Of a stretch of DNA of 64,000 nt, positions 9,477-57,182 are shown piece by piece (positions within the stretch are counted from its first letter, which is position 1; every line of letters begins with the position of its first letter). The notes beneath the pieces were generated by a model that saw only the letters and a program-made list of their open reading frames with translations, searched no databases and was not told where the DNA came from. The DNA comes from a bacterium. Its GTDB lineage: Bacteria; Patescibacteriota; Minisyncoccia; Sungbacterales; HO2-52-23. Position numbers and translations under genes: made by a program. Where the stretch lies: positions 2,293 through 66,292 of the forward strand of contig JAUYPW010000013.1 in NCBI GenBank assembly GCA_030697525.1, in the 5' to 3' direction.

Positions 9477-9477
9477 T

Positions 9478-14215: not shown

Positions 14216-15294
14216 AATTGTTAATAGTAACTCAAAAGATAGACCACGCCGATGAAAATCTAGGCTTTTTTTGCAAATGGCTAGAGGAATTAAAAAATAA
14301 TTTTAGCGAGGTACGAGTCATAACTTCCTATTTAAATGAGAAAAATAAGCCTGATGGAATAAAAATTTTCTCTTTAGGCAAAGAGAGAGGTACGGGAAAG
14401 ACGAAGAGGGTTTGGAACTTCTGGAGTCTTTTTTCAGAGCACTATATTGATGCCGACGCTGTTTTTTTTCATATGGCGCCGGAGTTTGTAGTCGCTGCTT
14501 GGCCTTTTCTGTGGTCATTGAAAAAACCAACAGCTTTATGGTACACCCACAGAGTTGTTAATCCATACTTAAAAGTTGCTGAAAAAATAGTAGATAACAT
14601 TTTTACCGCCTCCGAATTAAGTTTTAGGCTGCCATCGCAAAAGGTATTGGTGATAGGACATGCCATTGATACAAACTATTTCAGACCAGTATTAGAAGAG
14701 TCTGCAAAACCAAAAGGAAATAAGACTATTAAATTACTTACTCTCGGCAGAATTTCGCCCATCAAAGACATAGAGACGATTTTATGGGCTAGCGAAATAT
14801 TAAAAAACCGCTGGAAAAGACCCTGGAAACTTTCCATCGTTGGCGGACCTCTATTACCCAGAGATCATAAATATCTACAAACCCTGAAAGATTTTGTAAA
14901 AGAGAAAGGTCTGGAGAATAAGGTTGATTTTATAGGTCCGGTTGACCATACAAAAGTGGCTGAAATTTATAACAACCATGATGTTTTTATCTCTATGTCC
15001 GGTACCGGCTCGATAGATAAATCTGTGTTGGAAGCCATGGCTTCTGGTCTTACGGTCATTACTTCCAACGAAGCTTTCAAAGACGCTCTTCCACCCCAAT
15101 ATTTTTTGGCAGAGAAGTCCGCGGACATACTTGCCGAACGCATAGAAATTCTAGCTGGGGAAACTTGTCCCAATTTGTCTCTTCGTCAAAGAGTGGTTGA
15201 TAAACATAGTCTTAAGACAACTATCGGTAAAATAAGCCAAAATCTTTTAAAAAATACTCATGACCTCGCACATCTACAAACTTCTAAGAGATAA
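14212..15294 (+). CDS. GT4 family glycosyltransferase
   Basis: ATGA start/stop overlap. The N-terminus is typical of GT4 (MKLLIVTQKIDHADENLGFF). The C-terminal motif is SMSGTGSIDKSVLEAMASGLTVITS. Confidence 0.8.
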   Translation: MKLLIVTQKIDHADENLGFFCKWLEELKNNFSEVRVITSYLNEKNKPDGIKIFSLGKERGTGKTKRVWNFWSLFSEHYIDADAVFFHMAPEFVVAAWPFLWSLKKPTALWYTHRVVNPYLKVAEKIVDNIFTASELSFRLPSQKVLVIGHAIDTNYFRPVLEESAKPKGNKTIKLLTLGRISPIKDIETILWASEILKNRWKRPWKLSIVGGPLLPRDHKYLQTLKDFVKEKGLENKVDFIGPVDHTKVAEIYNNHDVFISMSGTGSIDKSVLEAMASGLTVITSNEAFKDALPPQYFLAEKSADILAERIEILAGETCPNLSLRQRVVDKHSLKTTIGKISQNLLKNTHDLAHLQTSKR

Positions 15295-15730
15295 GACTGA
15301 AGGTTTTTTATTAGTAAACATTCCTTTTCTTCATAGACGTCTTCATCGTCACCGGCTAGGTTTAAAATATATTATAGCCGGCTCAACCGCGGCTGGGGTA
15401 GACCTGATCCTTCTTTTTCTTTTAACAGATATGGTGGGTATGTGGTATTTTTATTCAGCAATTATAGCCTATATATGCTCTTTTTTCACCAGCTTTTTTC
15501 TGCAAAAGTTCTGGACTTTTAGAGACAATGACCGGAGTAGAATAAAAAAGCAATTGGCTATATACATAGCTACTGCCGGAGTGAGCCTGACATTAAATTC
15601 ATTTTTTATGTTTGTTTTTGTGAGCTTCTTTCAAATCTGGTATCTGACGGCCCAGTTTATAACCTCTGCTCTGCTAGCTTTTGGCAGTTTTATACTCAAC
15701 AAAACAGTTACATTTAAAAAATTATCATAA
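15260..15730 (+). CDS. GtrA-like small polytopic membrane protein (putative polyprenyl-phosphate-sugar flippase)
   Basis: The GtrA signature is LKYIIAGSTAAGVDLILLFLLTDMVGMWYFYSAIIAYICSFFTSFFLQKFWTFRD, with four predicted TM segments. The only in-frame ATG (15260) overlaps the upstream GT by 35 nt, so the true start may be a non-ATG codon further downstream. Confidence 0.55.
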   Translation: MTSHIYKLLRDKTEGFLLVNIPFLHRRLHRHRLGLKYIIAGSTAAGVDLILLFLLTDMVGMWYFYSAIIAYICSFFTSFFLQKFWTFRDNDRSRIKKQLAIYIATAGVSLTLNSFFMFVFVSFFQIWYLTAQFITSALLAFGSFILNKTVTFKKLS

Positions 15731-18404: not shown

Positions 18405-19171
18405 AACAAGCTCTCTTAGGGGCTTATAAATTATTGGAGCCTTGGTCAAAACCTCACCTACATGAGCGTAATTATTATGAAAAAGTAATGCGCTACGCGG
18501 TGGGTTGCTGTCCGGACAGAGATGGTTATATTGCTGATCTGGGAAGCGGGGTTGGTGTGCTTCCGCTTGCCCTAAGACTTATGGGATATAAGGTGGACGG
18601 TTTTGAAAAATATGTTTTTTCGGATGCCGAAAGCCCAATGTTCAAAGTTGCTGATGTCACCAGTCTTAAAGAAGTATGGAACAAAAATGGGCTGGAGGTA
18701 TTTGATTGTGATGTCTTGGCCGTTCCGGGAGAAAATCTTAAAAATAAATATAATGTGGTTATAAACACAGCCTTGATTGAACACGTGAAGAACCCAAAAT
18801 TGCTGCTAGGCAATATGCGGCTGCTTCTTAAAGATGGCGGGCATATAATTACCATGACCCCCAATTTGGCGGTATTTTATAAAAGACTTAGGTTTTTATT
18901 AGGTTTGTCTCCGCACTGGAATGTGGCCGATTTTTTTAATTTAGGAGAGCTTGGTTTTACAGGACATTGGCGGGAATATACATCAAAGGAGTTATGCTGG
19001 GTTCATAAACAGGCCGGTTTTGAAATAATTAAAGCCAACAATTGTGATATTTTTCCTCTAACTGATAAGAAAAACCTACGCAACTTTATACACCTTTTCG
19101 CTCGTTATATATCATATCCAATAGCCAATAGTCGGGAAGCCAATATTGTTATTGGTAAGAAAAATGGATGA
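18383..19171 (+). CDS. class I SAM-dependent methyltransferase
   Basis: Motif I is IADLGSGVGVLPLALRLMGYKVDGFE. The LLKDGGHIIT motif is present. Confidence 0.65.
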   Translation: MDRSSEIKQALLGAYKLLEPWSKPHLHERNYYEKVMRYAVGCCPDRDGYIADLGSGVGVLPLALRLMGYKVDGFEKYVFSDAESPMFKVADVTSLKEVWNKNGLEVFDCDVLAVPGENLKNKYNVVINTALIEHVKNPKLLLGNMRLLLKDGGHIITMTPNLAVFYKRLRFLLGLSPHWNVADFFNLGELGFTGHWREYTSKELCWVHKQAGFEIIKANNCDIFPLTDKKNLRNFIHLFARYISYPIANSREANIVIGKKNG

Positions 19172-20309
19172 AAAACTAAACATACTATATGTCGCCAATA
19201 GCAGAATTCCAACCGAAAAAGCCCATGGCAAACAAATAGCCGAAACTTGCCAGGCCCTAGCAGACAAAGGCTGTAATATACTTTTACTATTGCCGGCAAG
19301 AAAAAATTATATCACGGAGAATATTTTTGATTTTTATGGACTGCGTAGAAATTTCGCTGTTAAAAAGTTAACCTGCCTAGATCTTTTATTTTTACCTTTC
19401 GGTAAGTCCCTTTTCTTCTTTATCCAATCTGTGACATTCGCCCTGTCGACAATCTTTTTTTGTTTATGGACAAATAAAAAGTTCGACATCGTCTATACCA
19501 GAGATTTACTTTTGGCAGGTCTCCTTTCCTTTGGTAGGAGGGCAATCTTTGTTGAGATACACGATTTTCCGGCTAAATCAACTTTTATTCATCACATGAT
19601 GTGGCGAAAAGTAAAAGGCATAATTGTTATTAGCCAGGGCCTTAAAGAAGAGTTGGTTAAGCAGGGTATTACTGATGAAAAAATTCTGGTTGCCCGAGAC
19701 GGGGTAAGATTAGAGGAATTTGATATTGATATATCAAGAAAAGAGGCACGATTACGGCTTAACCTCGATCTTTATAAAAAGATTGTTCTATACACGGGCC
19801 ACCTTTATGACTGGAAGGGGGCTGATCTGCTTGCTGAGGCAGCCACAAATATGTCGCTGGATGTCCGGATTTATATTGTAGGAGGCACGGCTGAAGATGT
19901 TACTAATTTTAAAAGAAAATTTAAGGCCCCAAACTTATTTATTGTTGGCCACAGACCTCCTCAAGAAATTCCCATATGGCTCAAGGCAGCTGACTTGCTT
20001 GTACTTCCAAACAGGGCTGACAAAAAAATATCTTCTCACTATACTTCCCCACTCAAGCTTTTTGAATATATGGCGTCAGACACGCCAATGATTGTGTCTG
20101 ATCTGCCTTCTCTGCGAGAGGTTGTAGGTGACAATGAGGCTGTTTTTTTTACACCCGGCAACAAGAACGATTTGACACAAAAGATTATAACCGGCATAAA
20201 TAATAAAGAATCCTTGACGGCCGGCGCGCGCTTGGTGCAAACTACGGTTAGGCAATACAGTTGGGAAAACCGAAGCAAACTTATAAAGAAATTTATATTA
20301 GATCAATAA
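19164..20309 (+). CDS. GT4 family glycosyltransferase
   Basis: The N-terminus is GT4-like (MDEKLNILYVANSRIPTEKAHGKQIAE). The C-terminal region is YTSPLKLFEYMASDTPMIVSDLPSLREVV. Confidence 0.75.
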   Translation: MDEKLNILYVANSRIPTEKAHGKQIAETCQALADKGCNILLLLPARKNYITENIFDFYGLRRNFAVKKLTCLDLLFLPFGKSLFFFIQSVTFALSTIFFCLWTNKKFDIVYTRDLLLAGLLSFGRRAIFVEIHDFPAKSTFIHHMMWRKVKGIIVISQGLKEELVKQGITDEKILVARDGVRLEEFDIDISRKEARLRLNLDLYKKIVLYTGHLYDWKGADLLAEAATNMSLDVRIYIVGGTAEDVTNFKRKFKAPNLFIVGHRPPQEIPIWLKAADLLVLPNRADKKISSHYTSPLKLFEYMASDTPMIVSDLPSLREVVGDNEAVFFTPGNKNDLTQKIITGINNKESLTAGARLVQTTVRQYSWENRSKLIKKFILDQ

Positions 20310-20310
20310 C

Positions 20311-21027: not shown

Positions 21028-21051
21028 TAACTTTTGTTTTTATAAAAAAAT

Positions 21052-21114
21052 AGTGACAAGTTTAGTACAAATAGAGTATTATATATATGGTGTGTGTTGA
21101 ATAACAACAATTTC
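21052..21114 (+). promoter_or_regulatory. sigma70-like promoter (TGACAA - 17 nt - TATTAT) with a conserved extended spacer; followed by a degenerate copy of the gmhA 5' end and the RBS AAGGAGG
   Basis: AGTGACAAGTTTAGTACAAATAGAGTATTATATATATGG...TTGAATAACAACAATTTCTAA is near-identical to the sequence at 22750-22800, which is the promoter plus start of the gmhA-like gene. Confidence 0.45.
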
Positions 21115-21150
21115 TAAAATCTTGTCAGTGCTAGAGAAAAGGAGGTAGTT

Positions 21151-22710: not shown

Positions 22711-22713
22711 CCC

Positions 22714-22739
22714 AATGAGGACCTCGGTCCTCATTTTTT
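22714..22739 (+). terminator. rho-independent terminator
   Basis: AATGAGGACC-tc-GGTCCTCATTTTTT. Confidence 0.7.
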
Positions 22740-22750
22740 AAAAGAAAACA

Positions 22751-22785: not shown

Positions 22786-23421
22786 ATGAATAACAATAAT
22801 TCCTATGCTGAATCGTTTCTCCAGCAAATAAACGAGATTAGCACAGTTTTGAAGGTCTTATATGGCGCTAAGCTGGATCAGGCTGTAAACCTGCTTTTTG
22901 ATGCTTGGCGAGATGGTAGGTGGGTGTATATCATGGGTAACGGCGGTTCGGCCTCAACGGCCACGCATTTTGCCTCGGATTTGGCTAAAACGATTTGTGA
23001 TACCCCACAAGATTCAGGGCTAAAAGCCCTAGCTTTGGTTGATAATATTCCTCTGGTTAGCGCCCTGACCAATGATTGGGGTTGGGACAATCTTTATCTC
23101 AATCAATTAAAAAATTTTTATGTCCCCGGGGGCGTAGGTATTGGTATTAGTGTTCATGGGGGAAGCGGCAAAGAAATTGCTGGCCAGTGGTCGCAAAATC
23201 TGTTACGAGGACTGCAATTTATAAAAGACAAAGGCGGCAAGACCATAGGGTTAAGTGGTTTTGACGGCGGACCGATGAAAGATTTGGTAGATATCGGTAT
23301 TGTGGTGCCAGCCAATTCAACCCCGGTTGTAGAGGGCATGCATGTTGTTTTACACCACCTGCTAGTATTTGGCCTTAAAGAAAAAATTAATGAACACAAG
23401 AAAAATAGCCCTATTTATTGA
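22786..23421 (+). CDS. gmhA: D-sedoheptulose-7-phosphate isomerase (SIS domain), GmhA-like
   Basis: The SIS-domain motif is VYIMGNGGSASTATHFASDL. The length is ~210 aa, with about 50 aa before the GNGGS motif as in GmhA. Confidence 0.75.
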   Translation: MNNNNSYAESFLQQINEISTVLKVLYGAKLDQAVNLLFDAWRDGRWVYIMGNGGSASTATHFASDLAKTICDTPQDSGLKALALVDNIPLVSALTNDWGWDNLYLNQLKNFYVPGGVGIGISVHGGSGKEIAGQWSQNLLRGLQFIKDKGGKTIGLSGFDGGPMKDLVDIGIVVPANSTPVVEGMHVVLHHLLVFGLKEKINEHKKNSPIY

Positions 23422-23944
23422 CCGAGACGGGGTAATCAATGATACGGTTGATAGAGGCGAAGTTTTTTTTGTAAAAGGAAAGAAAGTGCGCTGGACAGCT
23501 CCTTTTAATCGCGAAGAATTTAAATTTAAACCCGGCGTGCATAATGCTCTGGCGGCAACAAAATCCTTAGGCTATATGAATATTTTAGTTACCAACCAGC
23601 CCGACGTTGGCTATGGCAATATGACCGTAGAAGAACATGACCACATGATGTTTCTGGTCAGACAACTGCCCTTGGATGATATTTATATATGTCTGCATAC
23701 CAGGTTTGATACTTGCGGTTGTAAAAAACCACTGCCGGGCATGATCACGGAAGCTGCTATAAAATGGGATATTGATTTGCCGCGCTCATTTGTGGTGGGG
23801 GATACCGCAAATGATGTGGGCGCTGGTAAGGCTGCTGGTTGCCGGACTATAATTTTAGATCATCCGTATAATCAAGATGTTGCGACTGATGTTAGATTAT
23901 TTGATTTGCAAGAGCTAGTAAGGTTTTTATCCAGAACACGCTAA
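23390..23944 (+). CDS. gmhB: HAD-IIIA phosphatase, D-glycero-D-manno-heptose-1,7-bisphosphate phosphatase GmhB-like
   Basis: The HAD motif I is IALFIDRDGVIN. It is followed by VTNQPDVGYG... and a Cys cluster CxxxxxC..C. The start is taken at MNTRK; an upstream in-frame ATG at 23369 is an alternative. Confidence 0.7.
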   Translation: MNTRKIALFIDRDGVINDTVDRGEVFFVKGKKVRWTAPFNREEFKFKPGVHNALAATKSLGYMNILVTNQPDVGYGNMTVEEHDHMMFLVRQLPLDDIYICLHTRFDTCGCKKPLPGMITEAAIKWDIDLPRSFVVGDTANDVGAGKAAGCRTIILDHPYNQDVATDVRLFDLQELVRFLSRTR

Positions 23945-23950
23945 TTAAAA

Positions 23951-23987
23951 AGCCAATCTTTACCACAGAGATTGGTCCTGTTTTTTA
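23951..23987 (+). terminator. rho-independent terminator
   Basis: CCAATCT-ttaccacag-AGATTGG followed by TTTTTT. Confidence 0.55.
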
Positions 23988-24044
23988 TCATAAGGTCGCT
24001 ATAAAAATGTACAAAATTGTTATAAATTGTTTAATAAAAAAATT

Positions 24045-24779: not shown

Positions 24780-24793
24780 AATTTATAAAGCTG

Positions 24794-26577: not shown

Positions 26578-26578
26578 C

Positions 26579-28640: not shown

Positions 28641-28641
28641 A

Positions 28642-29619: not shown

Positions 29620-29628
29620 TTTGTAAAA

Positions 29629-30480: not shown

Positions 30481-30496
30481 CCTTCCTTGTTTTATT

Positions 30497-39971: not shown

Positions 39972-39973
39972 AT

Positions 39974-43503: not shown

Positions 43504-43511
43504 ATACTAGT

Positions 43512-44944: not shown

Positions 44945-44954
44945 AAATATTTAA

Positions 44955-46868: not shown

Positions 46869-47842
46869 ATTTAAGATTTTTAATTGTCGGCCTCGGTTCT
46901 ATGGGAAAGCGGCGTATTCGTAACCTGCTTTTTAATGGTGAGAGTGCTATTACTGGTTTTGATATTTTGCCGGAAAGGTGTCATGAGGCAGAAAAAAAAT
47001 ATGGAATAAAAATAATAAACAGGTTTAAAAACATAGCACCAAAGGACTTTGATGTCATGATAATTTCTACATCCCCAGAATTCCACGGAAACTATATTCG
47101 GTACGCTCTTAAGCACAAAAAACATTTTTTTGTTGAGCATCCCACCAACGCTGATGGTTATAAAAATATTTTTGGAAACAAAGATTCTGATACGGTAAAA
47201 GCTCCTTCGTGCACTCTACGATTCTACCGACCTATTTTGGCGATAAAAAAAATAATTGAGGAAGGGAAGATCGGAAAAATATTATCATTCCAATATCACA
47301 TGGGGCAATATCTTCCCGATTGGCATCCGTGGGAAGATTATCGAAAAGTTTATTTCTCTAAGAAAGAAACTGGTGCGTGTCGTGAGATGCTTCCTTTCGA
47401 ATTAATTTGGCTGAATTGGGTTTTGGGTTCCAAAGTAAAAGAAGCTCGCGGTTTTATACGGAAAGTATCAGAGCTAGATATGAAAGCGGAAGATGTGGTG
47501 ACCGCCAGTGTGCTTTACGAAAATAACATAACAGGGAATATCATGATTGATGTTGTTTCCAGAAAACCTTTCAGAACCTTACGAATTATGGGTTCCAAAG
47601 GGGTTTTGGATTGGGAAAAATTTGATTCAAACTTAAGACTATACGATGCCAAATCCCAAGAAACCAAAACCATATCAGTGCCCAAAGGTCATCCCGAAAC
47701 AGGCTATGTAAATGAGGAGGAAATGTACCAAAAAGAGATAAAGGCTTTTCTTGACGCTGTTTACGGCAAGGCAAAATATCCTTTTACTTTTGAGGAAAAC
47801 TTATTGAATCTTAAGGTGCTTTTTGGGCTTCTGCGCAAGTAG
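46865..47842 (+). CDS. Gfo/Idh/MocA-family NAD(P)-dependent oxidoreductase
   Basis: The N-terminal Rossmann region is LRFLIVGLGSMGKRRIRNLL. The protein is 325 aa. Confidence 0.65.
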   Translation: MNLRFLIVGLGSMGKRRIRNLLFNGESAITGFDILPERCHEAEKKYGIKIINRFKNIAPKDFDVMIISTSPEFHGNYIRYALKHKKHFFVEHPTNADGYKNIFGNKDSDTVKAPSCTLRFYRPILAIKKIIEEGKIGKILSFQYHMGQYLPDWHPWEDYRKVYFSKKETGACREMLPFELIWLNWVLGSKVKEARGFIRKVSELDMKAEDVVTASVLYENNITGNIMIDVVSRKPFRTLRIMGSKGVLDWEKFDSNLRLYDAKSQETKTISVPKGHPETGYVNEEEMYQKEIKAFLDAVYGKAKYPFTFEENLLNLKVLFGLLRK

Positions 47843-47873
47843 TTACTTCCATTTTTAAGCAGGGGTTATAATA

Positions 47874-48145
47874 GGAGACCAGGATTCGAACTAACATCAA
47901 TTTAGTGAATCAATTCCCGTCCCAGATTCAAGGCGCGAGAAGCGAAGTGTATCTTTAGATACACGAGCGACGAGAAACGCAGAAGATGGGCGGGAATTGA
48001 TTCACCCGAAGGGAAGAGAGAATTTGGCCAATTTCTTCGTCACTCCTCGGAGAGGTGCTGGTCAGCACGATCTCCTTGTCGTTCCTAGAACTTGGCTCAA
48101 ATTCTCTCTTCTAAACTCTGATGCTAGTTCGAATCCTGGTCTCCA
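47874..48145. repeat. 272-nt nested perfect-palindrome element (22-bp terminal inverted repeats plus at least five internal perfect hairpins) directly abutting the neuB-like start codon
   Basis: The terminal inverted repeats are GGAGACCAGGATTCGAACTAAC and GCTAGTTCGAATCCTGGTCTCC. Internal perfect pairs are GTGAATCAATTCCCG/CGGGAATTGATTCAC, GTGTATCT-tt-AGATACAC, GAAGAGAGAATTTG/CAAATTCTCTCTTC, CCTC-gga-GAGG and GTGCTG-gt-CAGCAC. Confidence 0.6.
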
Positions 48146-48151
48146 AAGTAT

Positions 48152-49207
48152 ATGGCGCAAAGAGTCTTAAAGATAGGAAGAAAATTGGTTGGTTCAGGCC
48201 AGCCCGTTTTTATAATCGCCGAGGCTGGAGTAAATCACAACGGCAGATTGGATTTGGCTTTGCGGCTTGTAGATGCTGCGGCTGGTGCCGGAGCCGATGC
48301 TATAAAATTCCAGACCTTCAAAGCGGAGGGGGTTGTCACTAAAGGCGGAGAATTAGTTGCCTATCAAAAAAATAATATAAGAAAATTCAAAAATCAGCTT
48401 GACATGCTTAGAAGTTTGGAAATAAAAGAATCGTTCTACAAATCTATTATCAAGCGATGCGAGAAAAAAAATATAATTTTTTTATCTACACCGCACGGTG
48501 GTTTCCAGAGCGTTGATTTTTTAGAAAAGTTTAAGGTATCAGCATTCAAATTCGGATCAGGCGATATTACCAATCTTCCTCTTTTGGCGTATGCCGCGCA
48601 TTTTAAAAAACCGATAATATTGGGAACCGGTATGTCTAATATGCAGGAGGTGAGAGATGCCATCCGGTGCATCAAGAAAGCTGGTAATGACAAAATTGTA
48701 GTTCTACACTGTACCACCAGCTATCCCTGCCCACATGATGAAGTTAATCTTGCGGCTATGAGAAGTATGGCAAAAGAGCTGGATGTTCTGATCGGCTATT
48801 CAGATCACACCCATGGTATCCAGGCGGCGGTTATGGCTACTACCCTAGGCGCTAGTGTAATTGAAAAACATCTCACTTTGGATAAAAATTTTTCTGGACC
48901 TGATCATAAAGCCTCTGTTGAGCCAAAAGAATTTAAAGAGATGGTTGAATGGTTGCGTAATATACCAATCGTCTTGGGAAGTTCTTCTAAGAAGCCCACA
49001 GAACAGGAGTTGCTACACCGTCATCTGGTTAGAAAGAGTTTGGTTGCAGATAAAGATATTATGAAAGGAGAAATTTTTACGGAAAATAATTTAGCCATAA
49101 AACGTCCCGGAACAGGTATGATGCCGGAGCGATATTTTTCAATCATCGGTAAAAGGGCAAAAAGAAATATAAGTAAAGATACAATATTGAGACAAAATGA
49201 TTATTGA
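48152..49207 (+). CDS. N-acylneuraminate-9-phosphate / nonulosonic acid synthase (NeuB/LegI/PseI family) with C-terminal SAF domain
   Basis: VFIIAEAGVNHNGRLDLALRLVDAAAGAGADAIKFQTF is canonical NeuB. The C-terminal SAF/antifreeze-like domain is present. Confidence 0.85.
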   Translation: MAQRVLKIGRKLVGSGQPVFIIAEAGVNHNGRLDLALRLVDAAAGAGADAIKFQTFKAEGVVTKGGELVAYQKNNIRKFKNQLDMLRSLEIKESFYKSIIKRCEKKNIIFLSTPHGGFQSVDFLEKFKVSAFKFGSGDITNLPLLAYAAHFKKPIILGTGMSNMQEVRDAIRCIKKAGNDKIVVLHCTTSYPCPHDEVNLAAMRSMAKELDVLIGYSDHTHGIQAAVMATTLGASVIEKHLTLDKNFSGPDHKASVEPKEFKEMVEWLRNIPIVLGSSSKKPTEQELLHRHLVRKSLVADKDIMKGEIFTENNLAIKRPGTGMMPERYFSIIGKRAKRNISKDTILRQNDY

Positions 49208-50345
49208 TAAACAAAATAAAAAAAATATCGCCTATATCTCTGGCAGCAGGGCGGATTTTGGAATTATGACCCCCGTGCTACGTGCCATAAAAAATAGTAA
49301 AAAGTTAAATCTTCAACTATATGCTACCGGTATGCATCTTATGAATGATTTTGGCGGGACGATAAATGAAATAAAGAAAGAATTCAGTGGGGTAGTTCCG
49401 ATTAAAACTTGGTTTAAAGGAAATGAAAGAAAATATACAGCTCGTTTTATGGGTTCTTTCTTGGAGAAAGTGGTCACGGTATTAGAAAAATATAAACCCG
49501 ACTTTCTGCTTGTAATGGGGGATCGCCCGGAGATGTTTTGTGTTGCCTTAGCGGGTCTTTACATGGGGATTCCTGTGGCTCATGTCCATGGAGGGGAGCG
49601 CACTACAACTGTTGATGAGAGCGCTCGTCATGCCATAACTAGACTAGCGCATCTACATTTTCCCGCCACCAAAGAATCGGCAGAAAGAATTAGAAAAATG
49701 GGGGAGGAAAAGTGGAGGATAACAACAGTTGGGGCTCCTGCGCTGGATACCATCATAAAGGAAAAGCTACCGACACGTGACGAATTATTTAGGTCATTAA
49801 ATATAAACCCGGCAGAAAAAATTGCGTTAGTTACTTTTCATCCGGTTAGTGAAAAGTGGCGTCTGTCCGGTCAGCAAATGGGAGAAATTATGGCCGCAAT
49901 CAAAGGTCTAAATATGGTTACTGTGATTATCTATCCCAATACTGATGCGGGTAGTCATTTTATCATCAATGAAATAGAAAAAGAAAAAAATAACCCCAGA
50001 TTTAGAATATATAAAAACTTGCCGTACAAACATTTTCTTGCTCTGGAGCGGGAAGCAAGTGTTTGGATTGGTAACAGCAGTGCTGCCATGATAGAATCCG
50101 CTTACTTTGGCACCCCAGTTGTAAATGTGGGTGACCGCCAGCGCAACCGAGAAAGGGGTGATAATGTGATAGATGTAAGGTGTATAAAAAAAGATGTTGT
50201 TTCAGCAATTAGGAAAAGTATTTTCAAAGAAAAAAGATACGGTAAAAAAATATGGGGAGATGGACGGGCCAGTAAGCGCATCGTCAAAATCCTAGAGGAT
50301 CTAAAAATTACAAATCGTTTATTAGAAAAACAAATAACTTATTAA
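49197..50345 (+). CDS. hydrolysing UDP/GDP-N-acetylhexosamine 2-epimerase (NeuC/LegG family)
   Basis: AYISGSRADFGIMTPVL, GDRPEMF and HVHGGERTT are conserved motifs of the UDP-GlcNAc 2-epimerase family. Confidence 0.8.
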   Translation: MIIDKQNKKNIAYISGSRADFGIMTPVLRAIKNSKKLNLQLYATGMHLMNDFGGTINEIKKEFSGVVPIKTWFKGNERKYTARFMGSFLEKVVTVLEKYKPDFLLVMGDRPEMFCVALAGLYMGIPVAHVHGGERTTTVDESARHAITRLAHLHFPATKESAERIRKMGEEKWRITTVGAPALDTIIKEKLPTRDELFRSLNINPAEKIALVTFHPVSEKWRLSGQQMGEIMAAIKGLNMVTVIIYPNTDAGSHFIINEIEKEKNNPRFRIYKNLPYKHFLALEREASVWIGNSSAAMIESAYFGTPVVNVGDRQRNRERGDNVIDVRCIKKDVVSAIRKSIFKEKRYGKKIWGDGRASKRIVKILEDLKITNRLLEKQITY

Positions 50346-50350
50346 GTTAT

Positions 50351-50962
50351 ATGAAAGAAGTAATTATTATTGGGGCTGGGCAAAATGGTCAGGTCGTAAA
50401 AAATATTATTTCTCTGGATAAAAATACCAAAGTAATTGGTTTTCTTGATGATGCTAAACATGGCCGGGAAATTGTTGGCCTGGTGGCTGATTTTTTAAAG
50501 TTTAAAAAAAGAGGATGTGAATTTTTTATCTCCGTTGGGGATAACGAAGTAAGATCAAAAATTTTCCTAAAACTGCAAAAAAATAATGTAAAGTTTATAA
50601 ACGCAATTCATCCCTCTTCTTGTATAGAATCGTCAGCCAGCTTGGGCAGAAATATTATGATTGGCGCCTTTTCGTACCTTAATGTCAACTGCGTAGTGGG
50701 TGACAATACATTCATAAATAATGGTTGTATTATAGAGCACGATGTTAACATTGGGGCACATTGTCATCTAGCACCCGGGGTGGTTACGGCGGGCGAGACA
50801 GTAATTGGAGATAGGGTTTTTGTGGGTATAGGCGCTATGTTGCGGGATAGGATTAGAATTGGAAATAATTCTGTTATTGGTGCTGGTTCCAATGTTGTGT
50901 CTGATACTAAGGCCGGTGCAATGTATTATGGTAATCCGGCAAAATTTGTAAAAAAATTATGA
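50351..50962 (+). CDS. hexapeptide-repeat sugar N-acetyltransferase (NeuD/PglD/LegH-like)
   Basis: The N-terminal Rossmann-like region is VIIIGAGQNGQVVKNII...VIGFLDD, followed by LbH repeats (IGDRVFVGIGAMLRDRIRIGNNSVIGAGSNV). Confidence 0.7.
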   Translation: MKEVIIIGAGQNGQVVKNIISLDKNTKVIGFLDDAKHGREIVGLVADFLKFKKRGCEFFISVGDNEVRSKIFLKLQKNNVKFINAIHPSSCIESSASLGRNIMIGAFSYLNVNCVVGDNTFINNGCIIEHDVNIGAHCHLAPGVVTAGETVIGDRVFVGIGAMLRDRIRIGNNSVIGAGSNVVSDTKAGAMYYGNPAKFVKKL

Positions 50963-51456
50963 AGTACAAATATTGCTCGCTGTGCGGGAACACCCTGCGT
51001 CAGCGAAAAGACGGAAGGTTAGCCTGCACTAAATGCGATTTTGTTAATTATCAAAATCCTCGCCCGACAGTAACTGTTGTGGTTCTGCATAACAACAAAC
51101 TGCTTCTTACCAAAAGAGCCAGAGAGCCTTTCCAAGACTGGTGGGATTTGCCGGGTGGTTTTATTGAAAAGGGGGAGAGGCCGGAGGAAGCGGCATGTAG
51201 GGAATTGTGGGAAGAGACTCGACTCAAAATAAAAATAAAAAGTTTGTTTGGAATATACCCTGGAGTTTATCCCTCTAAGAAAGAACCTTTTTCAGTTTTA
51301 AGTATTGTTTATATCGCAGAGTGTAAAACCGCGAACTTAAAAGCTTTGGACGATGTTGCTGAAGGTAAATGGTTTGAGAAAGAAAAGATTCCCACAAAAA
51401 TTGCTTTTGACAGTAACCAAAAGGTTATTAAAGAATTCCTACGTTTATGGAAATAA
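50959..51456 (+). CDS. NUDIX hydrolase with N-terminal zinc ribbon
   Basis: The zinc ribbon is CSLCGN...CTKCDF. The Nudix box is GGFIEKGERPEEAACRELWEETRL. Confidence 0.7.
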   Translation: MKYKYCSLCGNTLRQRKDGRLACTKCDFVNYQNPRPTVTVVVLHNNKLLLTKRAREPFQDWWDLPGGFIEKGERPEEAACRELWEETRLKIKIKSLFGIYPGVYPSKKEPFSVLSIVYIAECKTANLKALDDVAEGKWFEKEKIPTKIAFDSNQKVIKEFLRLWK

Positions 51457-52124
51457 AGGATTTTGACTATTATTTTGACTTAAGTAAATTTGCGCATAAA
51501 AATCTTTTCGCTAACTGCGAATATGTATTTGATTTCTTAAAACATCTCGAAGGTTATATAAGGGCCAACCTGAATTCTGCCGTTTTGGGCAAGGTTTTAT
51601 CTGGAGCTATTGTTGAGGATAATGTGTATATAGGCAGGAACAGCGTGGTTCAACCCGGAGCTTGGGTACGAGGACCTTCTATAATTGGAGACAATTGTGA
51701 AATACGACATGGGGCTTATGTTGGGTCCAATACACTCACCGGTAACGGGGTTATTATTGGACACGCCTCGGAAGTGAGCAACTCTGTTTTTTTGGATAAT
51801 GCTCGGGCTCCGCATTTTGCGTTTGTGGGGCATAGTATATTGGGTAATCGAGTAAACTTAGGAGCTGGTACCAAGCTATCTAATCTTAAAATTACTGCAA
51901 AAGAAATAGAACTAGATAATATTAAAACCGGCCTTCTGAAGCTAGGAGCAATAATAGGGGACGACAGTTCTTTGGGGTGCAACACTGTTACCCAACCAGC
52001 GACGTTTCTTGGGAAAAAAGTTTTCAGTTATCCCGAAACTTTACTGCGAGGCTTTATCCCCTCCAGCACTATTATCAAACTTAGGCAGCAGCAGGAAATC
52101 ACACCATTTAATGAAAAGATCTAA
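51447..52124 (+). CDS. left-handed beta-helix (hexapeptide-repeat) protein, acyl/acetyltransferase-like
   Basis: Repeated [LIV]-G-x-x-x-x-[LIV] hexapeptides run through VYIGRNSVVQPGAWVRGPSIIGDNCEIRHGAYVGSNTLTGNGVIIGHASEV. There is no NTP-transferase domain. Confidence 0.5.
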   Translation: MEIKDFDYYFDLSKFAHKNLFANCEYVFDFLKHLEGYIRANLNSAVLGKVLSGAIVEDNVYIGRNSVVQPGAWVRGPSIIGDNCEIRHGAYVGSNTLTGNGVIIGHASEVSNSVFLDNARAPHFAFVGHSILGNRVNLGAGTKLSNLKITAKEIELDNIKTGLLKLGAIIGDDSSLGCNTVTQPATFLGKKVFSYPETLLRGFIPSSTIIKLRQQQEITPFNEKI

Positions 52125-53259
52125 TGGCAATAAAAAATATCCTCTGGCAAAGCCAAACATCGGCCGAGAAGAAATTGCCAATGTTACAAAAGTATTACAT
52201 TCCGGGATATTGAGTCTCGGAAATTTTGCAAAAAGATTTGAAAATGAATTTGCGAGAAAGATAGGAACCAAACATGCCTGTGCGGTGTCCAGCGGTACCG
52301 CCGGGTTACATTTGGCGCTACTTGCGGCAGGAATTAAAGATGGAGATGAAGTCATAACTACTCCTTTTTCTTTTGTGGCATCTGCCAATAGCATTCTCTA
52401 TGTTGGAGCAAAACCGGTGTTTGTGGATATTGAACCAGATACTTATAATATTGATCCTGAAAAAATTGAGAAAGTAATTACTCCAAAAACCAAAGCCATC
52501 TTGGTGGTTCATATATTTGGACAGGCCTGTAACATGACCCCCATACTAAGGATTGCCCAAAAACATAAACTGAAAATTATTGAAGATGCGTGTGAATCTT
52601 TGCTAGCTGAATACAAAAATAAAAAGACGGGTACTTTTGGGGAATCGGCTGTATTTGCTTTTTATCCTAATAAGCAAATTACCACCGGTGAGGGTGGCAT
52701 GATTATCACCAATAATCAATCAATAAACGCTCTGTGCCGATCTTTAAGAAACCAAGGCCGTTCTCCGGATATGAAGTGGCTAAACCACGAAAGATTGGGT
52801 TATAACTATAGGATGGACGAGATGAGCGCAGCTTTGGGACTTGCCCAGCTTGGCAAGGTGGACAAGATACTCAAAGAGCGAGCCAATGTAGCATACTTAT
52901 ATCACAAGCACCTGCTTCCGTATAAAAGTATTCTGTCAATTCCGAAAATTGCCGCACATAATACTCATACCTGGTTTGTATATGTGGTAAGAATATTAAA
53001 TCGCGATGTAGATAGGGATAAGGTGATTACTGATTTAGAAAAAATTGGTATAGAGACAAAACCATATTTACCATCTATACACCTGTTCAGTTTTTATAAA
53101 AATAAGTTTGGGTATAAAAAAGGCGATTTTCCGATAGCAGAGGAAGTAAGCCAGAATACCTTAGCGCTACCTTTTTATATAGGGATTAAAGAAAAGGATA
53201 TAATTAAAATAGTTGTAGCTTTGATTAAGGTTATCGAAAAAAATGGAAAAGGAATTTAA
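52111..53259 (+). CDS. DegT-family PLP-dependent aminotransferase (LegC/PglE/PseC-like)
   Basis: From MKRSNGNKKYPLAKPNIGREEIANVTKVLHSGILSLG.F...FE.EFA it shows typical aminotransferase class-V/DegT features. The ATG at 52111 overlaps the upstream stop by 14 nt. The longer ORF from 52009 is rejected because it lies wholly inside the upstream gene. Confidence 0.8.
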   Translation: MKRSNGNKKYPLAKPNIGREEIANVTKVLHSGILSLGNFAKRFENEFARKIGTKHACAVSSGTAGLHLALLAAGIKDGDEVITTPFSFVASANSILYVGAKPVFVDIEPDTYNIDPEKIEKVITPKTKAILVVHIFGQACNMTPILRIAQKHKLKIIEDACESLLAEYKNKKTGTFGESAVFAFYPNKQITTGEGGMIITNNQSINALCRSLRNQGRSPDMKWLNHERLGYNYRMDEMSAALGLAQLGKVDKILKERANVAYLYHKHLLPYKSILSIPKIAAHNTHTWFVYVVRILNRDVDRDKVITDLEKIGIETKPYLPSIHLFSFYKNKFGYKKGDFPIAEEVSQNTLALPFYIGIKEKDIIKIVVALIKVIEKNGKGI

Positions 53260-54262
53260 AGGAAAAAGAATTTTAGTCACCGGAGGAACGGGCTCTATTG
53301 GCTCGGCAATTGTAAAAGAGCTTTTGAGATATAAACCCTATCAAATTAGGGTTTATAGCCGTGACGAGACCAAACAGTTTGAGTTAAGCCACGAATTGGA
53401 TCCTAAAGCTCCAGTCAATTTTTTGATAGGCGATATTCGGGATAAAGAGCGTCTTAATATGGCTATGGAAAATATTGACATAGTCTTTCATGCCGCGGCC
53501 ATGAAGCATGTGGCTGCCTGCGAGAAAAATCCCTTTGAGGCGGTAAAGACCAATATCCAAGGTACGCAAAACGTCATTGATTGCGCTTTTACTAATGGGG
53601 TAGATAAAGTTATAGGTATTTCAACCGACAAGGCGGCCGATCCGACAAATGTCATGGGGTGTACTAAGTTACTAGCGGAGAAAATAATGTTGGCTACTTA
53701 TTTTTACAAAGGCAAGAAGAAAACTAGGTTTTGTTTCGTTCGTTTTGGCAATGTATTGGGATCACGGGGGTCGGTTGTGCCGCTTTTTATAAAGCAGGCA
53801 AAAAGTGGTGGGCCGGTAACAATTACTGACCCTGCCATGACCAGATTTTTTATGTCTGTGTCACAGGCCGTAAACCTGATTTTCAAGGCAACCAAACTAA
53901 TGAAAGATCGGGAAATTTTTGTTTTAAAAATGCCAGTAGCCAATATAAAAGATTTAGCTCTGGTAGTGGTGGATTCAATAAAAGCCAAAAATAATAGCGT
54001 AGACAAGAGAATAGAAATTAAGGTGATTGGTAAAAAAAACGGGGAGAGAGTGCATGAGAAGCTACTAACGAGAGAAGAATCGGAAGTTGCTTTAGAAACG
54101 GACGAAATGTTTGTAATAACCCCAGATTTAAGCGTGGAAAAAAACAGCGCAGGACACAATTCTTATTATAAATCAAAAAAAGCTAAAGTAAGGGAGTATT
54201 CTTCTAAAGATCAATCGCTTCTTTCTCCAGAGGCTATTAAAAAAATACTTCTTGAAATATGA
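53243..54262 (+). CDS. nucleotide-sugar (UDP/GDP-GlcNAc) 4,6-dehydratase, short PseB/LegB/CapD-like SDR
   Basis: KRILVTGGTGSIGSAIVKELLRY is the Gly-rich NAD(P) motif. The protein is ~340 aa, CapD/FlaA1-like. Confidence 0.8.
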   Translation: MEKEFKGKRILVTGGTGSIGSAIVKELLRYKPYQIRVYSRDETKQFELSHELDPKAPVNFLIGDIRDKERLNMAMENIDIVFHAAAMKHVAACEKNPFEAVKTNIQGTQNVIDCAFTNGVDKVIGISTDKAADPTNVMGCTKLLAEKIMLATYFYKGKKKTRFCFVRFGNVLGSRGSVVPLFIKQAKSGGPVTITDPAMTRFFMSVSQAVNLIFKATKLMKDREIFVLKMPVANIKDLALVVVDSIKAKNNSVDKRIEIKVIGKKNGERVHEKLLTREESEVALETDEMFVITPDLSVEKNSAGHNSYYKSKKAKVREYSSKDQSLLSPEAIKKILLEI

Positions 54263-55758
54263 ATGATCGGGTAGCTGACAACAAGGGCGCTTTAGCCAAA
54301 GCGATACACAGTGGCAAATGGATGTTATACGGCACAGCCACACAAAAAATCCTTAGTGTGGCCACTTTTTTTATATTGGCGCGTATTCTCACTCCAGAAC
54401 ACTACGGAATCATTGCTGTGGTATTGATGATTACCTCAACCACCAACCTAATGACTAGCCACGGGCTAGAGATGGCCATCGCTCAACGAGGTGTAGATGT
54501 AGAAAAATATTTGGACTCAATCTGGACCCTCAATATACTACGAGCTCTTGCGCTGGCCATTTTAATCTTTATATTGTCTAAGCCGTTGAGTATTTTTTTC
54601 CATATCCCGACCGCTGTAAATATTCTGCGAGTTGGTGGCCTGTTGTTAATTGCCATCCATTTGATTAATGTTCGTCAGATACACTTTGTTATAAATCTTG
54701 ATTTTAAAAAACTTTTTTGGAGAGATTTTGCCGGACAAATAGCTTACACAATTTCCGCCTTAAGCTGGGCTTTGTTTGTCCAGGCATCAGCCTGGGCGCT
54801 CTTGGTGGGGCATATGGCGCGCCAGATAGTGTCCGATGTGGTTACTTATATTGAATATCCTTGTTGGCCGCGGCTATCTTTCAAATTCCGCCCCCTTTTA
54901 AATTTTATAGGTTATAGCAAGTGGATTAGCGGCCAAGTTGTGCTGGACTACATAACTAATTTTATAGACCCAATTTTTGTGGGCCGTATGCTAGGACCGA
55001 GTAATTTGGGCTTGTACTCCAAAGCCAATGAGCTGGCTTCTACCGCTACCGCTACCCTTTTAAGCATTATGCGCAAAATAAGTTTTTACGCTTATAATAC
55101 TGTCCAGTCTGATCTGCAGAAAATTCAAAAAGGTTTTATCAAGAGTTTAGATGTTATCGGCTTAATAATGTTCCCGTTCAGTTTTTTAATTTTTATAGAA
55201 GGGGAGGCCATAGTCTCTATGTTATTGGGGCAAAGATGGTTATTGCTGGTTGTTCCGCTTAAAATTTTGGCTATAGCTAATTTTTTAGACTCAATATCAG
55301 GCATATTTAACCCAGTCTTTAATATTCTAGGAAAGCCAAAGATTAATGCTTATGCCACACTATTGAGATTAATATCGTCGTTGGCGCTTTTATATTTTGC
55401 CGCTAAATGGTGGGGCATGACGGGGGTTGCCGTAGCCATTCTGATTATGGCTTTTCTGGTTTTGTTGTATAATATTTGGGAATCAATGGCGCTCTTAAAG
55501 CTGGGGTGGCGAAAAGTAATGCCAAGTATTTTACAACCAGTGGTATCTCTCGTGCCGTTGTTTGTTTTATTTTTATTCCTACAAGAATCGATACACAAAA
55601 TAGAAAACGCTTATCTCACTGTTGTTTGGCTGATATTACTTCTTGCGATATACGCGATATCTTTTCTTTTATTGAGTAGATTTTTCAAGCAAGGGCCTCG
55701 TAACACAATAATAGATATACTGGCTGAATTTAAACACAAAGGAGATCTTATATCTTAA
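54259..55758 (+). CDS. wzx: Wzx-like oligosaccharide flippase (MOP superfamily polysaccharide biosynthesis protein)
   Basis: It has 12-14 predicted TM helices. The N-terminus (K..L...SGKWMLYGTATQKILSVATFFILARILTPEHYGIIAV) is typical of PF01943 flippases. Confidence 0.7.
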   Translation: MNDRVADNKGALAKAIHSGKWMLYGTATQKILSVATFFILARILTPEHYGIIAVVLMITSTTNLMTSHGLEMAIAQRGVDVEKYLDSIWTLNILRALALAILIFILSKPLSIFFHIPTAVNILRVGGLLLIAIHLINVRQIHFVINLDFKKLFWRDFAGQIAYTISALSWALFVQASAWALLVGHMARQIVSDVVTYIEYPCWPRLSFKFRPLLNFIGYSKWISGQVVLDYITNFIDPIFVGRMLGPSNLGLYSKANELASTATATLLSIMRKISFYAYNTVQSDLQKIQKGFIKSLDVIGLIMFPFSFLIFIEGEAIVSMLLGQRWLLLVVPLKILAIANFLDSISGIFNPVFNILGKPKINAYATLLRLISSLALLYFAAKWWGMTGVAVAILIMAFLVLLYNIWESMALLKLGWRKVMPSILQPVVSLVPLFVLFLFLQESIHKIENAYLTVVWLILLLAIYAISFLLLSRFFKQGPRNTIIDILAEFKHKGDLIS

Positions 55759-57182
55759 ACCGTAGTCACGTGTTTTTTAATCCGTAGCAAAGCATAGCCG
55801 GCCATTATAAGAACTAAAGAGTTTATAGGCTGCCGTACTCGGCCGGTAAGACCAATGCCCATAGTTGCTGCAGCGATTGAAAAATATACTACCACCAGCA
55901 AAATAAGCAGAATTTTTGCGTCGAGTTTGTTTTTAACCACATATTTAATTACTCCGCCAAGGGCCAGAACAGCAGCCGCTATCCACAGCAGACGGCTTAG
56001 AACTATAATTATGGCCGGACTGGCAAGATAAGAAACGATATGAGGTAGGTAGGAAAGTTTGGGGTGTGTGAGCATGGTAAATAGGGGAGGAGTGGGAAGT
56101 TTCAGGGTCTCGTAATCAGTTAGATAGCCGAGAAACTGCACAACCGTAATATAATTATCGTGGGTCCAGAATTGAAATACTCCTCCCAGCACGCTTAATA
56201 AAAATCCTTTCGGATGTTCTTTGATAGTTTGCCAAAGAATTCTGTTGTACTCCTTTTCCTTAGTTATATCTATATACGGCTGGGAGCCGTCGGGGGTTAT
56301 TTCTTTGAATAATTCGGTTTGGGCTTCGGCATAGGTGATATTTTTTCCCAGTGAAATTATAGAAGGAGCCCAGACAACAACACCTAAACCTGACCTGGCT
56401 GAAGTAAAACCCCAAACACCAAAAGTCTTATAGTTGCGGTAAATCCACGGCAAAATTGTTATATAGAATATGCTAGCCACTATAAATACCTGCACTATAA
56501 AAGTTTTCAAGGACAGATTCTTTGTTATTTTTTTCCATAAGGCAAACGCACAAAAAGCGTAAGGCAAATAAATAGTTATTGGTCTGACTAGCGTCGCCAG
56601 ACCAATAAACAACCCCAGCAATGCCAGTTGCCAAAAACTAGTTGATTTCTGCTCCCCATAATCAAGTAATTTTATAAACACAATTAAAAATAAGATGGTA
56701 AACAATGTTTCAGTGACCAGCTGGATTGATAAGAGAATAGATAGGGGTTCTAGAGCCAAAACAGTTCCTACGCCATAGGCTAATTTTTTATTTTGAGGAA
56801 ATAATTTAAGGCTTAGGAAATAGCTTAAAATTGGTATTATACTGCTGGCCAGTACCTGGATGAATAGAAATAATCCGATCGAATTACTAGCTATAAAAGG
56901 AGCCATTAACAGAGAATAACCCGGAGCCCTAAAACCATCATCCGAATAGATGTTGGTATCTTCGTCATAATGCGGCAAATCAAGCCCTTTAGCAAAATAT
57001 ATAGCTGACCTATAATAATCATCCAAGGCAATATTTTGGAGAAGATTATTTCCATAGTGAGCGTACGAAGCATAAAGAAAAACCAGCCGTAAAACTACGG
57101 CAATAATAAAGATTAAGACAAGCCATTTGTTTTTCAGTAAAGACTTTATTTTAATAAACATATTATTACTATAATATAACAT
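55755..57182 (-). CDS. GT-C fold membrane glycosyltransferase, ArnT/PMT (GT39/GT83)-like
   Basis: The N-terminal TM segment (WLVLIFIIAVVLRLVFLYASYAHYG) is followed by a periplasmic loop. A D-D-like loop is present (YDEDTNIYSDDGFRAPG). There are about 11 predicted TM helices. Confidence 0.55.
   Translation of the reverse strand: MLYYSNNMFIKIKSLLKNKWLVLIFIIAVVLRLVFLYASYAHYGNNLLQNIALDDYYRSAIYFAKGLDLPHYDEDTNIYSDDGFRAPGYSLLMAPFIASNSIGLFLFIQVLASSIIPILSYFLSLKLFPQNKKLAYGVGTVLALEPLSILLSIQLVTETLFTILFLIVFIKLLDYGEQKSTSFWQLALLGLFIGLATLVRPITIYLPYAFCAFALWKKITKNLSLKTFIVQVFIVASIFYITILPWIYRNYKTFGVWGFTSARSGLGVVVWAPSIISLGKNITYAEAQTELFKEITPDGSQPYIDITKEKEYNRILWQTIKEHPKGFLLSVLGGVFQFWTHDNYITVVQFLGYLTDYETLKLPTPPLFTMLTHPKLSYLPHIVSYLASPAIIIVLSRLLWIAAAVLALGGVIKYVVKNKLDAKILLILLVVVYFSIAAATMGIGLTGRVRQPINSLVLIMAGYALLRIKKHVTTV

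Follow-up and report, generated by a model that had tools for sequence, protein, structure and literature searches.

Parts of a probable transmembrane glycosylation system, including an unnamed GT-C family, in a surface-glycan island of a Patescibacteria genome

Results

A dense glycan island with five candidate parts

We analysed a window of 64,000 nucleotides (the whole stretch of DNA under study, from contig JAUYPW010000013.1) by mapping its open reading frames (ORFs) and scanning them with Pfam and NCBIfam. Positions 10797-57182, about 47 kb, form one dense glycan-biosynthesis island, and this stretch is a surface-glycan island of a metagenome-assembled genome (MAG) of the Patescibacteria (candidate phyla radiation, CPR). 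An earlier note on this DNA had singled out five ORFs as a single toolkit for glycosylation outside the membrane, and the ORF map places all five where that note had put them: a small GtrA-like membrane protein, a GtrB-like glycosyltransferase of family 2 (GT2), and three large membrane proteins that we call M616, M851 and M475 (Table 1). We read the island as holding parts of a multi-component ('three-component') transmembrane glycosylation system in which M616 is the likeliest partner of the GT2, and give this reading a probability of roughly 0.62.

The donor synthase and the flippase candidate

Judged from its sequence, the GT2 is firmly a GtrB/ArnC/CsbB-type enzyme. It has a GT-A domain, a DxD motif (DAD at residues 87-89) and two C-terminal transmembrane (TM) helices (224-252 and 259-289), matches PF00535 (3e-32), and is alignable over its full length, both with the solved ArnC (9bhc; 9e-39, residues 2-304 on 10-314, with the C-terminal membrane part included) and with the solved Synechocystis GtrB sll0501 (5ekp; 4e-27, residues 2-302). 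Specificity for a particular sugar is not assignable in the same way. Full-length NCBIfam matches to ArnC (1.8e-46) and PgfS (5.6e-38) fall below the respective equivalog cut-offs (158.6 against 529 bits for NF007986; 130.9 against 500 bits for NF047588), as does a match to AglJ (TIGR04182, 1.2e-20), and there is a further match to a haloarchaeal dolichyl-phosphate (Dol-P) hexose transferase. The same scans found no second GtrB-like GT2 in the 64-kb window.

The GtrA-like protein matches PF04138 across the whole model (positions 1-117 of 117; 1.1e-21, 77.6 bits against a cut-off of 26.1) and shows four hydrophobic segments in its hydropathy profile, which places it in the GtrA family. The lack of a real start codon in this ORF would have spoken against the earlier note; an ATG at 15260, its sole in-frame start, is present and overlaps the upstream family 4 glycosyltransferase (GT4) gene by 35 nt. 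By analogy with its family the protein may flip a lipid-linked sugar, an activity that is only presumed even for the characterised members (PMC8035078). Its gene lies 11 kb from that of the GT2, within a block of GT4 genes.

The GT2 gene itself belongs to a run, from 24794 to 32314, of tightly packed genes whose stops and starts overlap or almost touch, and which ends with M616. Within this run the GT2 is followed by a DAO-type oxidoreductase dependent on flavin adenine dinucleotide (FAD), which has no NCBIfam match and has homologues in 7 of the 61 M616 loci described below; speculatively, and with DprE1 as the analogy, it might modify the sugar or the lipid-linked sugar.

M616 represents an unnamed GT-C family

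Searched against Pfam, NCBIfam and the PDB sequences, M616 finds no match, and no Pfam family is common to any of 39 aligned relatives at E values up to 1. Its AlphaFold2 model, built from 39 homologues, is nevertheless a confident one (pLDDT 87.4, pTM 0.90) and predicts about 11 TM helices with the N-terminus inside, followed by a 185-residue C-terminal alpha/beta domain outside. The top 17 Foldseek matches of this model are all GT-C glycosyltransferases, with probabilities of 0.98-1.00, and a role as a transporter was rejected, the probabilities for transporters lying below 0.2. With GT-C enzymes as its nearest structural neighbours and a long first outer loop that bears conserved acidic residues, the model points to a GT-C fold.

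Conservation across 127 family representatives (24-44% identity) is concordant with that assignment. The predicted outer loops carry three acidic positions, E45 (E or D in 93%), D57 (D or E in 97%) and E69 (E or D in 98%), as well as the invariant G58, R174 and P178 and a histidine, H367, kept in 99%; conserved residues in such loops are what would be expected of a GT-C active site. The family is large: clustering at 50% identity gives at least 554 clusters for E values of 1e-30 or better and 1264 for 1e-10 or better. All homologues that bear a lineage name belong to the Patescibacteria/Parcubacteria, the rest of the records being labelled merely 'bacterium', and to judge from these records the family is apparently specific to Patescibacteria.

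Several named families were considered for M616 and rejected. Because the WWDYG-type motif is missing, in M616 and in 126 of the 127 representatives, it is not an oligosaccharyltransferase (OST) of the STT3/AglB/PglB type; there is also no match to the STT3 Pfam (PF02516) at E values up to 1, and no sequence relation to the solved OSTs in the PDB. Membership of PMT, PMT_2 or ArnT (GT39/GT83) was discarded on the lack of any PF02366 or PF13231 match and on an hhalign probability of 0.3% against the M475/PMT_2 alignment, and membership of the YfhO family on hhalign probabilities of 1.6% and 15% against PF09586-bearing proteins. No Wzy_C or O-antigen polymerase Pfam was matched.

M851 and M475 belong to two further families

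M851 matches PF09586 at 2.5e-9 (36.5 bits against a cut-off of 28.5), the best-matching stretch covering residues 753-823 only. Comparison by hhalign with distant PF09586-bearing proteins, however, gave a probability of 100% (E 3.8e-79) over residues 15-844, and 24 of 33 close homologues carry PF09586. On this homology M851 is a true but divergent member of the YfhO family, and the label 'YfhO-like' that it had been given is borne out. Since the YfhO family is classed as GT-C in the literature (PMC8035078), M851 would be a GT-C by that classification.

M475 scores 26.1 bits against PF13231 (PMT_2), exactly at the gathering score, and its model likewise suggests a GT-C; only seven homologues are detectable. 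The earlier description of M475 as ArnT-like proved too specific, as AglB, ALG12, PIG-M and ArnT all score alike, and we rejected ArnT proper. We also rejected a protein O-mannosyltransferase of the PMT type (GT39), given that M475 lacks PF02366 and a MIR domain and is merely 475 residues long.

Structure prediction and fold comparison, which the earlier note had proposed, were thus run for two of the three large proteins, M616 and M475, and the strong structural neighbours of both are GT-C glycosyltransferases only. The claim that all three are of GT-C type stands, through these models and, for M851, through its full-length YfhO homology together with the literature. The accompanying statement that none could be confidently assigned from sequence holds for M616, but not for M851, which is assignable to YfhO, and M475 is a borderline PMT_2 protein. 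Sequence-profile searches of the PDB with the three family alignments returned nothing relevant. No significant hhalign relation was found among the M616, M851 and M475 families, and we therefore regard them as three separate families rather than paralogues.

M616 travels with a GT2 and a methyltransferase

To place the three proteins in their genomic contexts, we collected 61 M616 loci from GTDB species representatives and searched their ORFs with every protein of the window. All 61 are patescibacterial MAGs, some of them with wrong automatic labels. For the GT2 we counted the 49 loci whose upstream flank measures 6 kb or more, taking as neighbours genes within 10 kb. An ArnC/GtrB/DPM1-like GT2 neighbours M616 in 46 of these 49 loci and is lacking in three; in 32 it is a full-length GtrB-like protein (200 bits or more, TM tail included), and in 14 it is a short one of about 235 residues whose best matches are ArnC, PgfS, PpgS and Dol-P-hexose transferase. 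Among all 61 loci the GT2 is present in 46, upstream and on the same strand in 41 of them. A homologue of the S-adenosylmethionine (SAM)-dependent methyltransferase encoded before M616 occurs within 10 kb in 44 of the 61 loci, lies upstream in 42 of those 44, and touches the start of M616 in 25.

The conservation extends to the flanks. Wherever the GT4 that we call GT4_c is present (27 loci) it lies upstream of M616 on the same strand; among the loci having each gene, GDP-mannose 4,6-dehydratase (GMD) lies downstream in 24 of 31, a further GT4 (GT4_d) in 23 of 26, and the KpsC/KpsS-like Capsule_synth gene in 28 of 29. The conserved order is GT4_c, AsnB, GT2, methyltransferase, M616, GMD, GT4_d and then Capsule_synth on the opposite strand, and the genes of the window follow it. 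Given the synteny of the GT2 and the methyltransferase around M616, we conclude that the GT2 and M616 are the best-supported donor-transferase pair of the island.

The remaining parts are seen less often near M616: YfhO in 3 loci, M475 in 2, GtrA in 6, Wzx in 8-9, an ABC exporter of the MsbA/PglK type in 12 and other PMT_2 GT-Cs in up to 16. A Zn-ribbon C-methyltransferase occurs near M616 in 22 loci. One 21-kb contig (L009, JBBTVC010000037.1) carries two tandem YfhO paralogues (P0125, P0144) together with an M616 homologue (P0024).

M851 and M475 keep other company. In two other Patescibacteria a YfhO homologue is directly followed by Capsule_synth (L150, 11541-13070; L151, 8133-9626). The homologue in L150 sits beside the same fusion of pyruvate kinase (PK) with a synthase of 3'-phosphoadenosine 5'-phosphosulfate (PAPS) that is found in the window, and beside a sulfotransferase, HisF/HisH/WbuX and nonulosonic-acid genes; in L151 the context consists of the nonulosonic-acid genes NeuB and CMP-transferase only. 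A 73%-identical homologue of M475, the one close relative, is likewise convergent with Wzx and follows nonulosonic-acid genes, and the context of a 43%-identical homologue is different and incomplete. By these contexts both proteins go with the half of the island that holds the nonulosonic-acid, sulfate and Wzx genes, and not with the GT2 module. The parts of the proposed single toolkit (GtrA-like protein, GT2 and three GT-Cs) are therefore all present, but only M616 is tied to the GT2 by synteny, the other two GT-Cs going with nonulosonic-acid, sulfation and Wzx genes, so that the supposed single toolkit probably comprises two or three sub-systems.

Other contents of the island

The coordinates of these genes and of the other features of the island are collected in Table 1. 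Besides them the island holds many SAM methyltransferases, a B12-binding radical-SAM enzyme and AsnB.

Table 1. Features of the glycan island, by position in the window
Feature	Position	Strand	Remarks
Three GT4 genes with four GT4 modules	10797..15294	+	Cytoplasmic Leloir transferases; PF00534 and PF13439 matches; double module 10797-13100, single GT4s 13097-14215 and 14212-15294
GtrA-family small membrane protein	15260..15730	+	156 aa; PF04138; polyprenyl-phosphate-sugar flippase candidate
GT4_c	19146..20309	+	Conserved upstream member of the M616 cassette
Sugar-nucleotide supply: GmhA, GmhB, transaldolase, DegT aminotransferase, NDP-sugar pyrophosphorylase	22786..26577	+	Directly upstream of the GT2
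GtrB/ArnC/CsbB-type GT2	26579..27517	+	312 aa; predicted polyprenyl-phosphate monosaccharide synthase
FAD-dependent (DAO-type) oxidoreductase	27495..28640	+	PF01266 2.8e-9; overlaps the GT2 stop by 23 nt
HddA-like GHMP kinase	28621-29619	+	
SAM-dependent methyltransferase	29629..30480	+	283 aa; PF08241 3.4e-16; conserved upstream neighbour of M616
M616, predicted GT-C-fold membrane glycosyltransferase	30497..32314	+	616 aa; unnamed Patescibacteria family
GDP-mannose 4,6-dehydratase (GMD)	32400-33476	+	TIGR01472 486 bits
GT4_d	33516-34706	+	PF00534
Capsule_synth (KpsC/KpsS-like)	34690..36204	-	PF05159 6.9e-12; weak match to the BFO_1060 glycosyltransferase family
Pyruvate-kinase barrel/PAPS synthase fusion and sulfotransferase	37176..40951	+	Glycan sulfation
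M851, divergent YfhO-family protein	40948..43503	-	851 aa; N-terminal TM domain and ~330-aa C-terminal extracytoplasmic domain
Nonulosonic-acid (Leg/Pse-type) biosynthesis	43512..54262	+	Complete pathway; includes the acetamidino-forming HisF/HisH/WbuX set
MOP-family (Wzx-type) flippase	54259..55758	+	PF13440 4e-62; NCBIfam MOP flippase 1.7e-44
M475, PMT_2-like GT-C (model-supported)	55755..57182	-	475 aa; convergent with the Wzx gene, 4-nt overlap

The genes at 22786-29619, interleaved with the GT2, are a nucleoside diphosphate (NDP)-glycero-manno-heptose-type route that makes its own supply of sedoheptulose-7-phosphate. Capsule_synth is a candidate CMP-ulosonic-acid transferase. The count of six GT4s plus Wzx given in the earlier note agrees with what we see, namely five GT4 proteins with six GT4 modules (starting at 10797, 13097, 14212, 19146 and 33516) and the MOP/Wzx flippase. 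Of the Wzx-dependent route, which that note had set beside the toolkit, the window holds only a part: Wzx is there, but the scans found no initiating phosphoglycosyltransferase (Bac_transf or MraY type), Wzy, Wzy_C ligase, LCP or STT3 in the 64-kb window.

The fusion protein (37176-39971, 931 residues) has an unusual architecture, in which a pyruvate-kinase barrel at residues 5-321, lacking the PK C-terminal domain, is continued by PUA_2, ATP-sulfurylase and adenosine phosphosulfate (APS) kinase, with the sulfotransferase next at 39974-40951; the fusion adjoining the YfhO homologue of L150 has 903 residues. It may couple phosphoenolpyruvate-driven regeneration of ATP to PAPS synthesis. At 43512-46139 (+) lie HisF-like, HisH-like and WbuX genes, the last an N-acetyl sugar amidotransferase (TIGR03573, 365 bits), adjoining NeuB, NeuC-like, PglD, DegT and CMP-transferase genes, and the product implied by this combination is a Leg/Pse-type nonulosonic acid with an acetamidino substituent.

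The B12-binding radical-SAM enzyme (21151-22710, +) has as its best NCBIfam match a P-methyltransferase-like family, well below the cut-off. Its homologues occur in 12 of the 61 M616 loci, which suggests an unusual C- or P-methylation of the glycan. A radical-SAM/SPASM enzyme is encoded beside the island (59939-61147, -). Directly upstream of the island, at 784-10875 (+), seven genes in a row encode proteins that are secreted or anchored in the membrane, all with signal-like N-termini; PG_binding_1 is found in three of them and LTD together with PKD in one, and Ser/Thr-rich stretches, with up to 47% S+T over 40 residues, occur in several.

Discussion

A proposed mechanism

We propose a scheme built on the family and fold of the parts, their topology and their synteny, from which we infer the flipping step, the donor sugar, the acceptor and the pairing of each GT-C with its donor. 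On the cytoplasmic face the GT2 would charge undecaprenyl phosphate (Und-P) with a monosaccharide taken from a nucleotide sugar. The sugar would probably come from the co-transcribed NDP-heptose and amino-sugar genes (24794-30480); the neighbouring SAM methyltransferase may add a methyl group to it, or the FAD enzyme may oxidise it. The GtrA-family protein, as the candidate within the window, or some other flippase would bring the lipid-linked sugar to the outer face, where M616, its catalytic loops outside, would pass it to an extracytoplasmic acceptor. M851 and M475 would most likely run separate transfers outside the membrane, tied to the island's genes for nonulosonic acid, sulfation and Wzx, and would draw on the same Und-P-sugar or on donors made elsewhere. 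Likely acceptors would be the glycan exported by Wzx or those secreted proteins, rich in Ser/Thr, whose genes lie upstream at 784-10875. There is precedent for such economy, since one GtrA is documented to serve several GT-A/GT-C pairs and one GT-A to feed two GT-Cs, and GT-Cs that match no Pfam family are also on record (PMC8035078).

Several observations weigh against this reading. The scarcity of GtrA near M616 (6 of 61 loci) is one; elsewhere the flipping may fall to ABC exporters (found in 12 loci) or to Wzx (in 8-9). The island has one GT2 for three GT-Cs, when the known systems usually have them paired. A reciprocal search of JGI metagenomes returned 80 loci with related GT2s; 41 of these span 8 kb or more, and no M616 homologue lies in any of the 41, so that the link between GT2 and M616 is one-directional. 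The GT2s recovered there have 27-65% identity and are probably from other lineages, and the search was to that extent uninformative. The M616 loci also come from related species, and the synteny counts therefore overstate their independence. For M475, the structure model (pLDDT 74.6, from 7 sequences) is of moderate confidence.

Alternative readings

Another way to view the locus is to do away with a single toolkit altogether, such that only the GT2, the methyltransferase and M616 form a unit, M851 and M475 obtain their donors from GT2s elsewhere, and GtrA serves another pathway; the three co-located GT-Cs would then be a pile-up of glycan genes and not a shared mechanism. The low counts of YfhO (3 of 61) and M475 (2 of 61) near M616 speak for this, as do the company of the YfhO homologues (Capsule_synth, nonulosonic-acid and PAPS genes) and of the close M475 homologue (Wzx and nonulosonic-acid genes), and the position of GtrA inside the GT4 block, 11 kb off the GT2. 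Shared flippases and shared GT-A enzymes are, however, documented (PMC8035078), and the window has no second GtrB-like GT2 from which the other GT-Cs could be supplied; we consider this view unlikely, although it is one to be taken seriously. That at least one of the large membrane proteins is no glycosyltransferase, but a transporter, a polymerase or ligase of the Wzy/WaaL type, or a non-catalytic scaffold with a GT-C fold like PIG-U, seems highly improbable, given the low Foldseek probabilities for transporters, the catalytic GT-Cs at the top of the structural matches, the acidic residues of the first outer loop and the invariant arginine kept throughout the M616 family, and the lack of any Wzy_C or O-antigen polymerase match.

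A different use of the GT2 is conceivable, by analogy with archaea. Here a GtrB/AglJ-like GT2 would start a whole glycan on polyprenyl monophosphate, the GT4s and Capsule_synth would extend it in the cytoplasm, Wzx, the ABC exporter or GtrA would flip it, and M616, as the OST, would transfer the whole of it en bloc, with surface proteins or wall polymers as the acceptors. The absence of an initiating phosphoglycosyltransferase favours such a route: it was missing from the window, from the seven homologous neighbourhoods inspected and from the gene clusters that recur around M616 in the 61 loci. So do the central place of M616 in a conserved cassette that includes GT4s, AsnB, GMD and Capsule_synth, and the matches of the GT2 to AglJ and to the haloarchaeal Dol-P hexose transferase. 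Bacterial GtrB/ArnC/CsbB enzymes, however, make monosaccharide donors, M616 has neither the WWDYG-type motif, which 126 of the 127 family representatives also lack, nor an STT3 match, and a phosphoglycosyltransferase may sit elsewhere in the genome, about 64 kb of which is in view. An initiating enzyme encoded elsewhere is in fact likelier than a GT2 that starts an archaeal-type polyprenyl-monophosphate-linked glycan, and we regard en bloc transfer as rather improbable. Its boldest form would make the M616 family a WWDYG-less OST of a Patescibacteria-specific pathway of archaeal style, in which the glycan, started by an AglJ/GtrB-like GT2 without a phosphoglycosyltransferase and assembled by GT4s, a KpsC-like transferase and methyltransferases, passes en bloc to surface proteins; as a combined proposal this is doubtful indeed. 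We thus retain the multi-component system, with M616 as the partner of the GT2, as our preferred reading.

Significance

Patescibacteria are ultra-small, mostly uncultured bacteria that are thought to live attached to other cells, and because of this lifestyle their surface chemistry is central to their biology, yet it is almost unexplored. Our search of the accessible literature found nothing specific on GT-C enzymes, glycosylation or systems of this kind in Patescibacteria. The genome studied here gives over some 47 kb to a glycan with many decorations, among them a sugar of heptose type, an acetamidino nonulosonic acid, sulfate and numerous methyl groups, and the extracytoplasmic steps of its assembly are predicted to fall to three GT-C enzymes. 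Shared flippases, shared GT-A enzymes and Pfam-less GT-Cs were already known, and the island belongs with the multi-component transmembrane glycosylation systems in which they occur. What the island adds to these is a large unnamed family, with a GT-C fold supported by its structure model and a conserved partnership with a GT2 and a methyltransferase. The M616 family has conserved partners, a GT-C model of high confidence and a small set of residues that are candidates for catalysis, and is defined well enough to be tested; it could seed a new CAZy or Pfam family, and heterologous reconstitution is conceivable.

Comparison with known systems

The closest kind of system is that of Gram-positive bacteria, in which CsbB/GtlA (GT-A), GtcA (GtrA family) and YfhO/GtlB (GT-C) act together, and Csd, Pgf and the phage and Shigella GtrA/GtrB/GtrX systems follow the same logic. 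Like these Gram-positive systems, the island has a membrane-anchored GT2 homologous to GtrB/ArnC and a small membrane protein of the GtrA family, in a monoderm-type organism, and its mix of GT-Cs (YfhO, PMT_2 and one without a Pfam match) is the mix listed for Listeria, Bacillus and Lactococcus (PMC8035078). Unlike them, it has one GT2 for three GT-Cs and no adjacent GT-A/GT-C pairs, its host is a Patescibacteria MAG, its best-linked GT-C comes from an unnamed family with a SAM methyltransferase as neighbour, GtrA is rarely linked to that GT-C, and no teichoic acid genes were seen in it. The resemblance to ArnC/ArnT is more distant: the GT2 reaches 158 of the 529 bits of the ArnC equivalog cut-off, ArnA, ArnB and ArnD genes are lacking, and ArnT is not the closest fold for either M616 or M475. 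To our knowledge, there is no lipid A in this lineage.

The streptococcal Pgf system, in which PgfS and PgfM1/PgfM2 O-glycosylate Ser/Thr-rich regions of surface proteins, similarly has one PgfS-like GT2 for more than one GT-C, and secreted proteins with Ser/Thr-rich stretches are encoded beside the island; the GT2, however, lies below the PgfS equivalog cut-off, there is no PgfE-type arrangement, and protein acceptors are only presumptive here. With the archaeal AglJ/AglB and bacterial PglB systems the island shares the AglJ-like match of its GT2 and, in the model of M616, a GT-C fold with a C-terminal extracytoplasmic globular domain, whereas M616 differs from AglB and PglB in lacking WWDYG, an STT3 Pfam match and any sequence relation to solved OSTs. 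A last parallel is provided by the GT136 pentofuranose systems, which consist of a polyprenyl-phosphoribose synthase, a MATE flippase and a GT-C (PMC11127046). There the donor synthase is a phosphoribosyl pyrophosphate-dependent enzyme of the UbiA type and not a GT2, and the flippase is a MATE protein rather than a GtrA or Wzx candidate, but the overall plan is alike: a lipid-linked monosaccharide donor, a flippase, and then a GT-C with a C-terminal domain, which in GT136 is a binding domain. GT136 was founded recently, and GT-C families of such a kind are still being named (PMC11127046).

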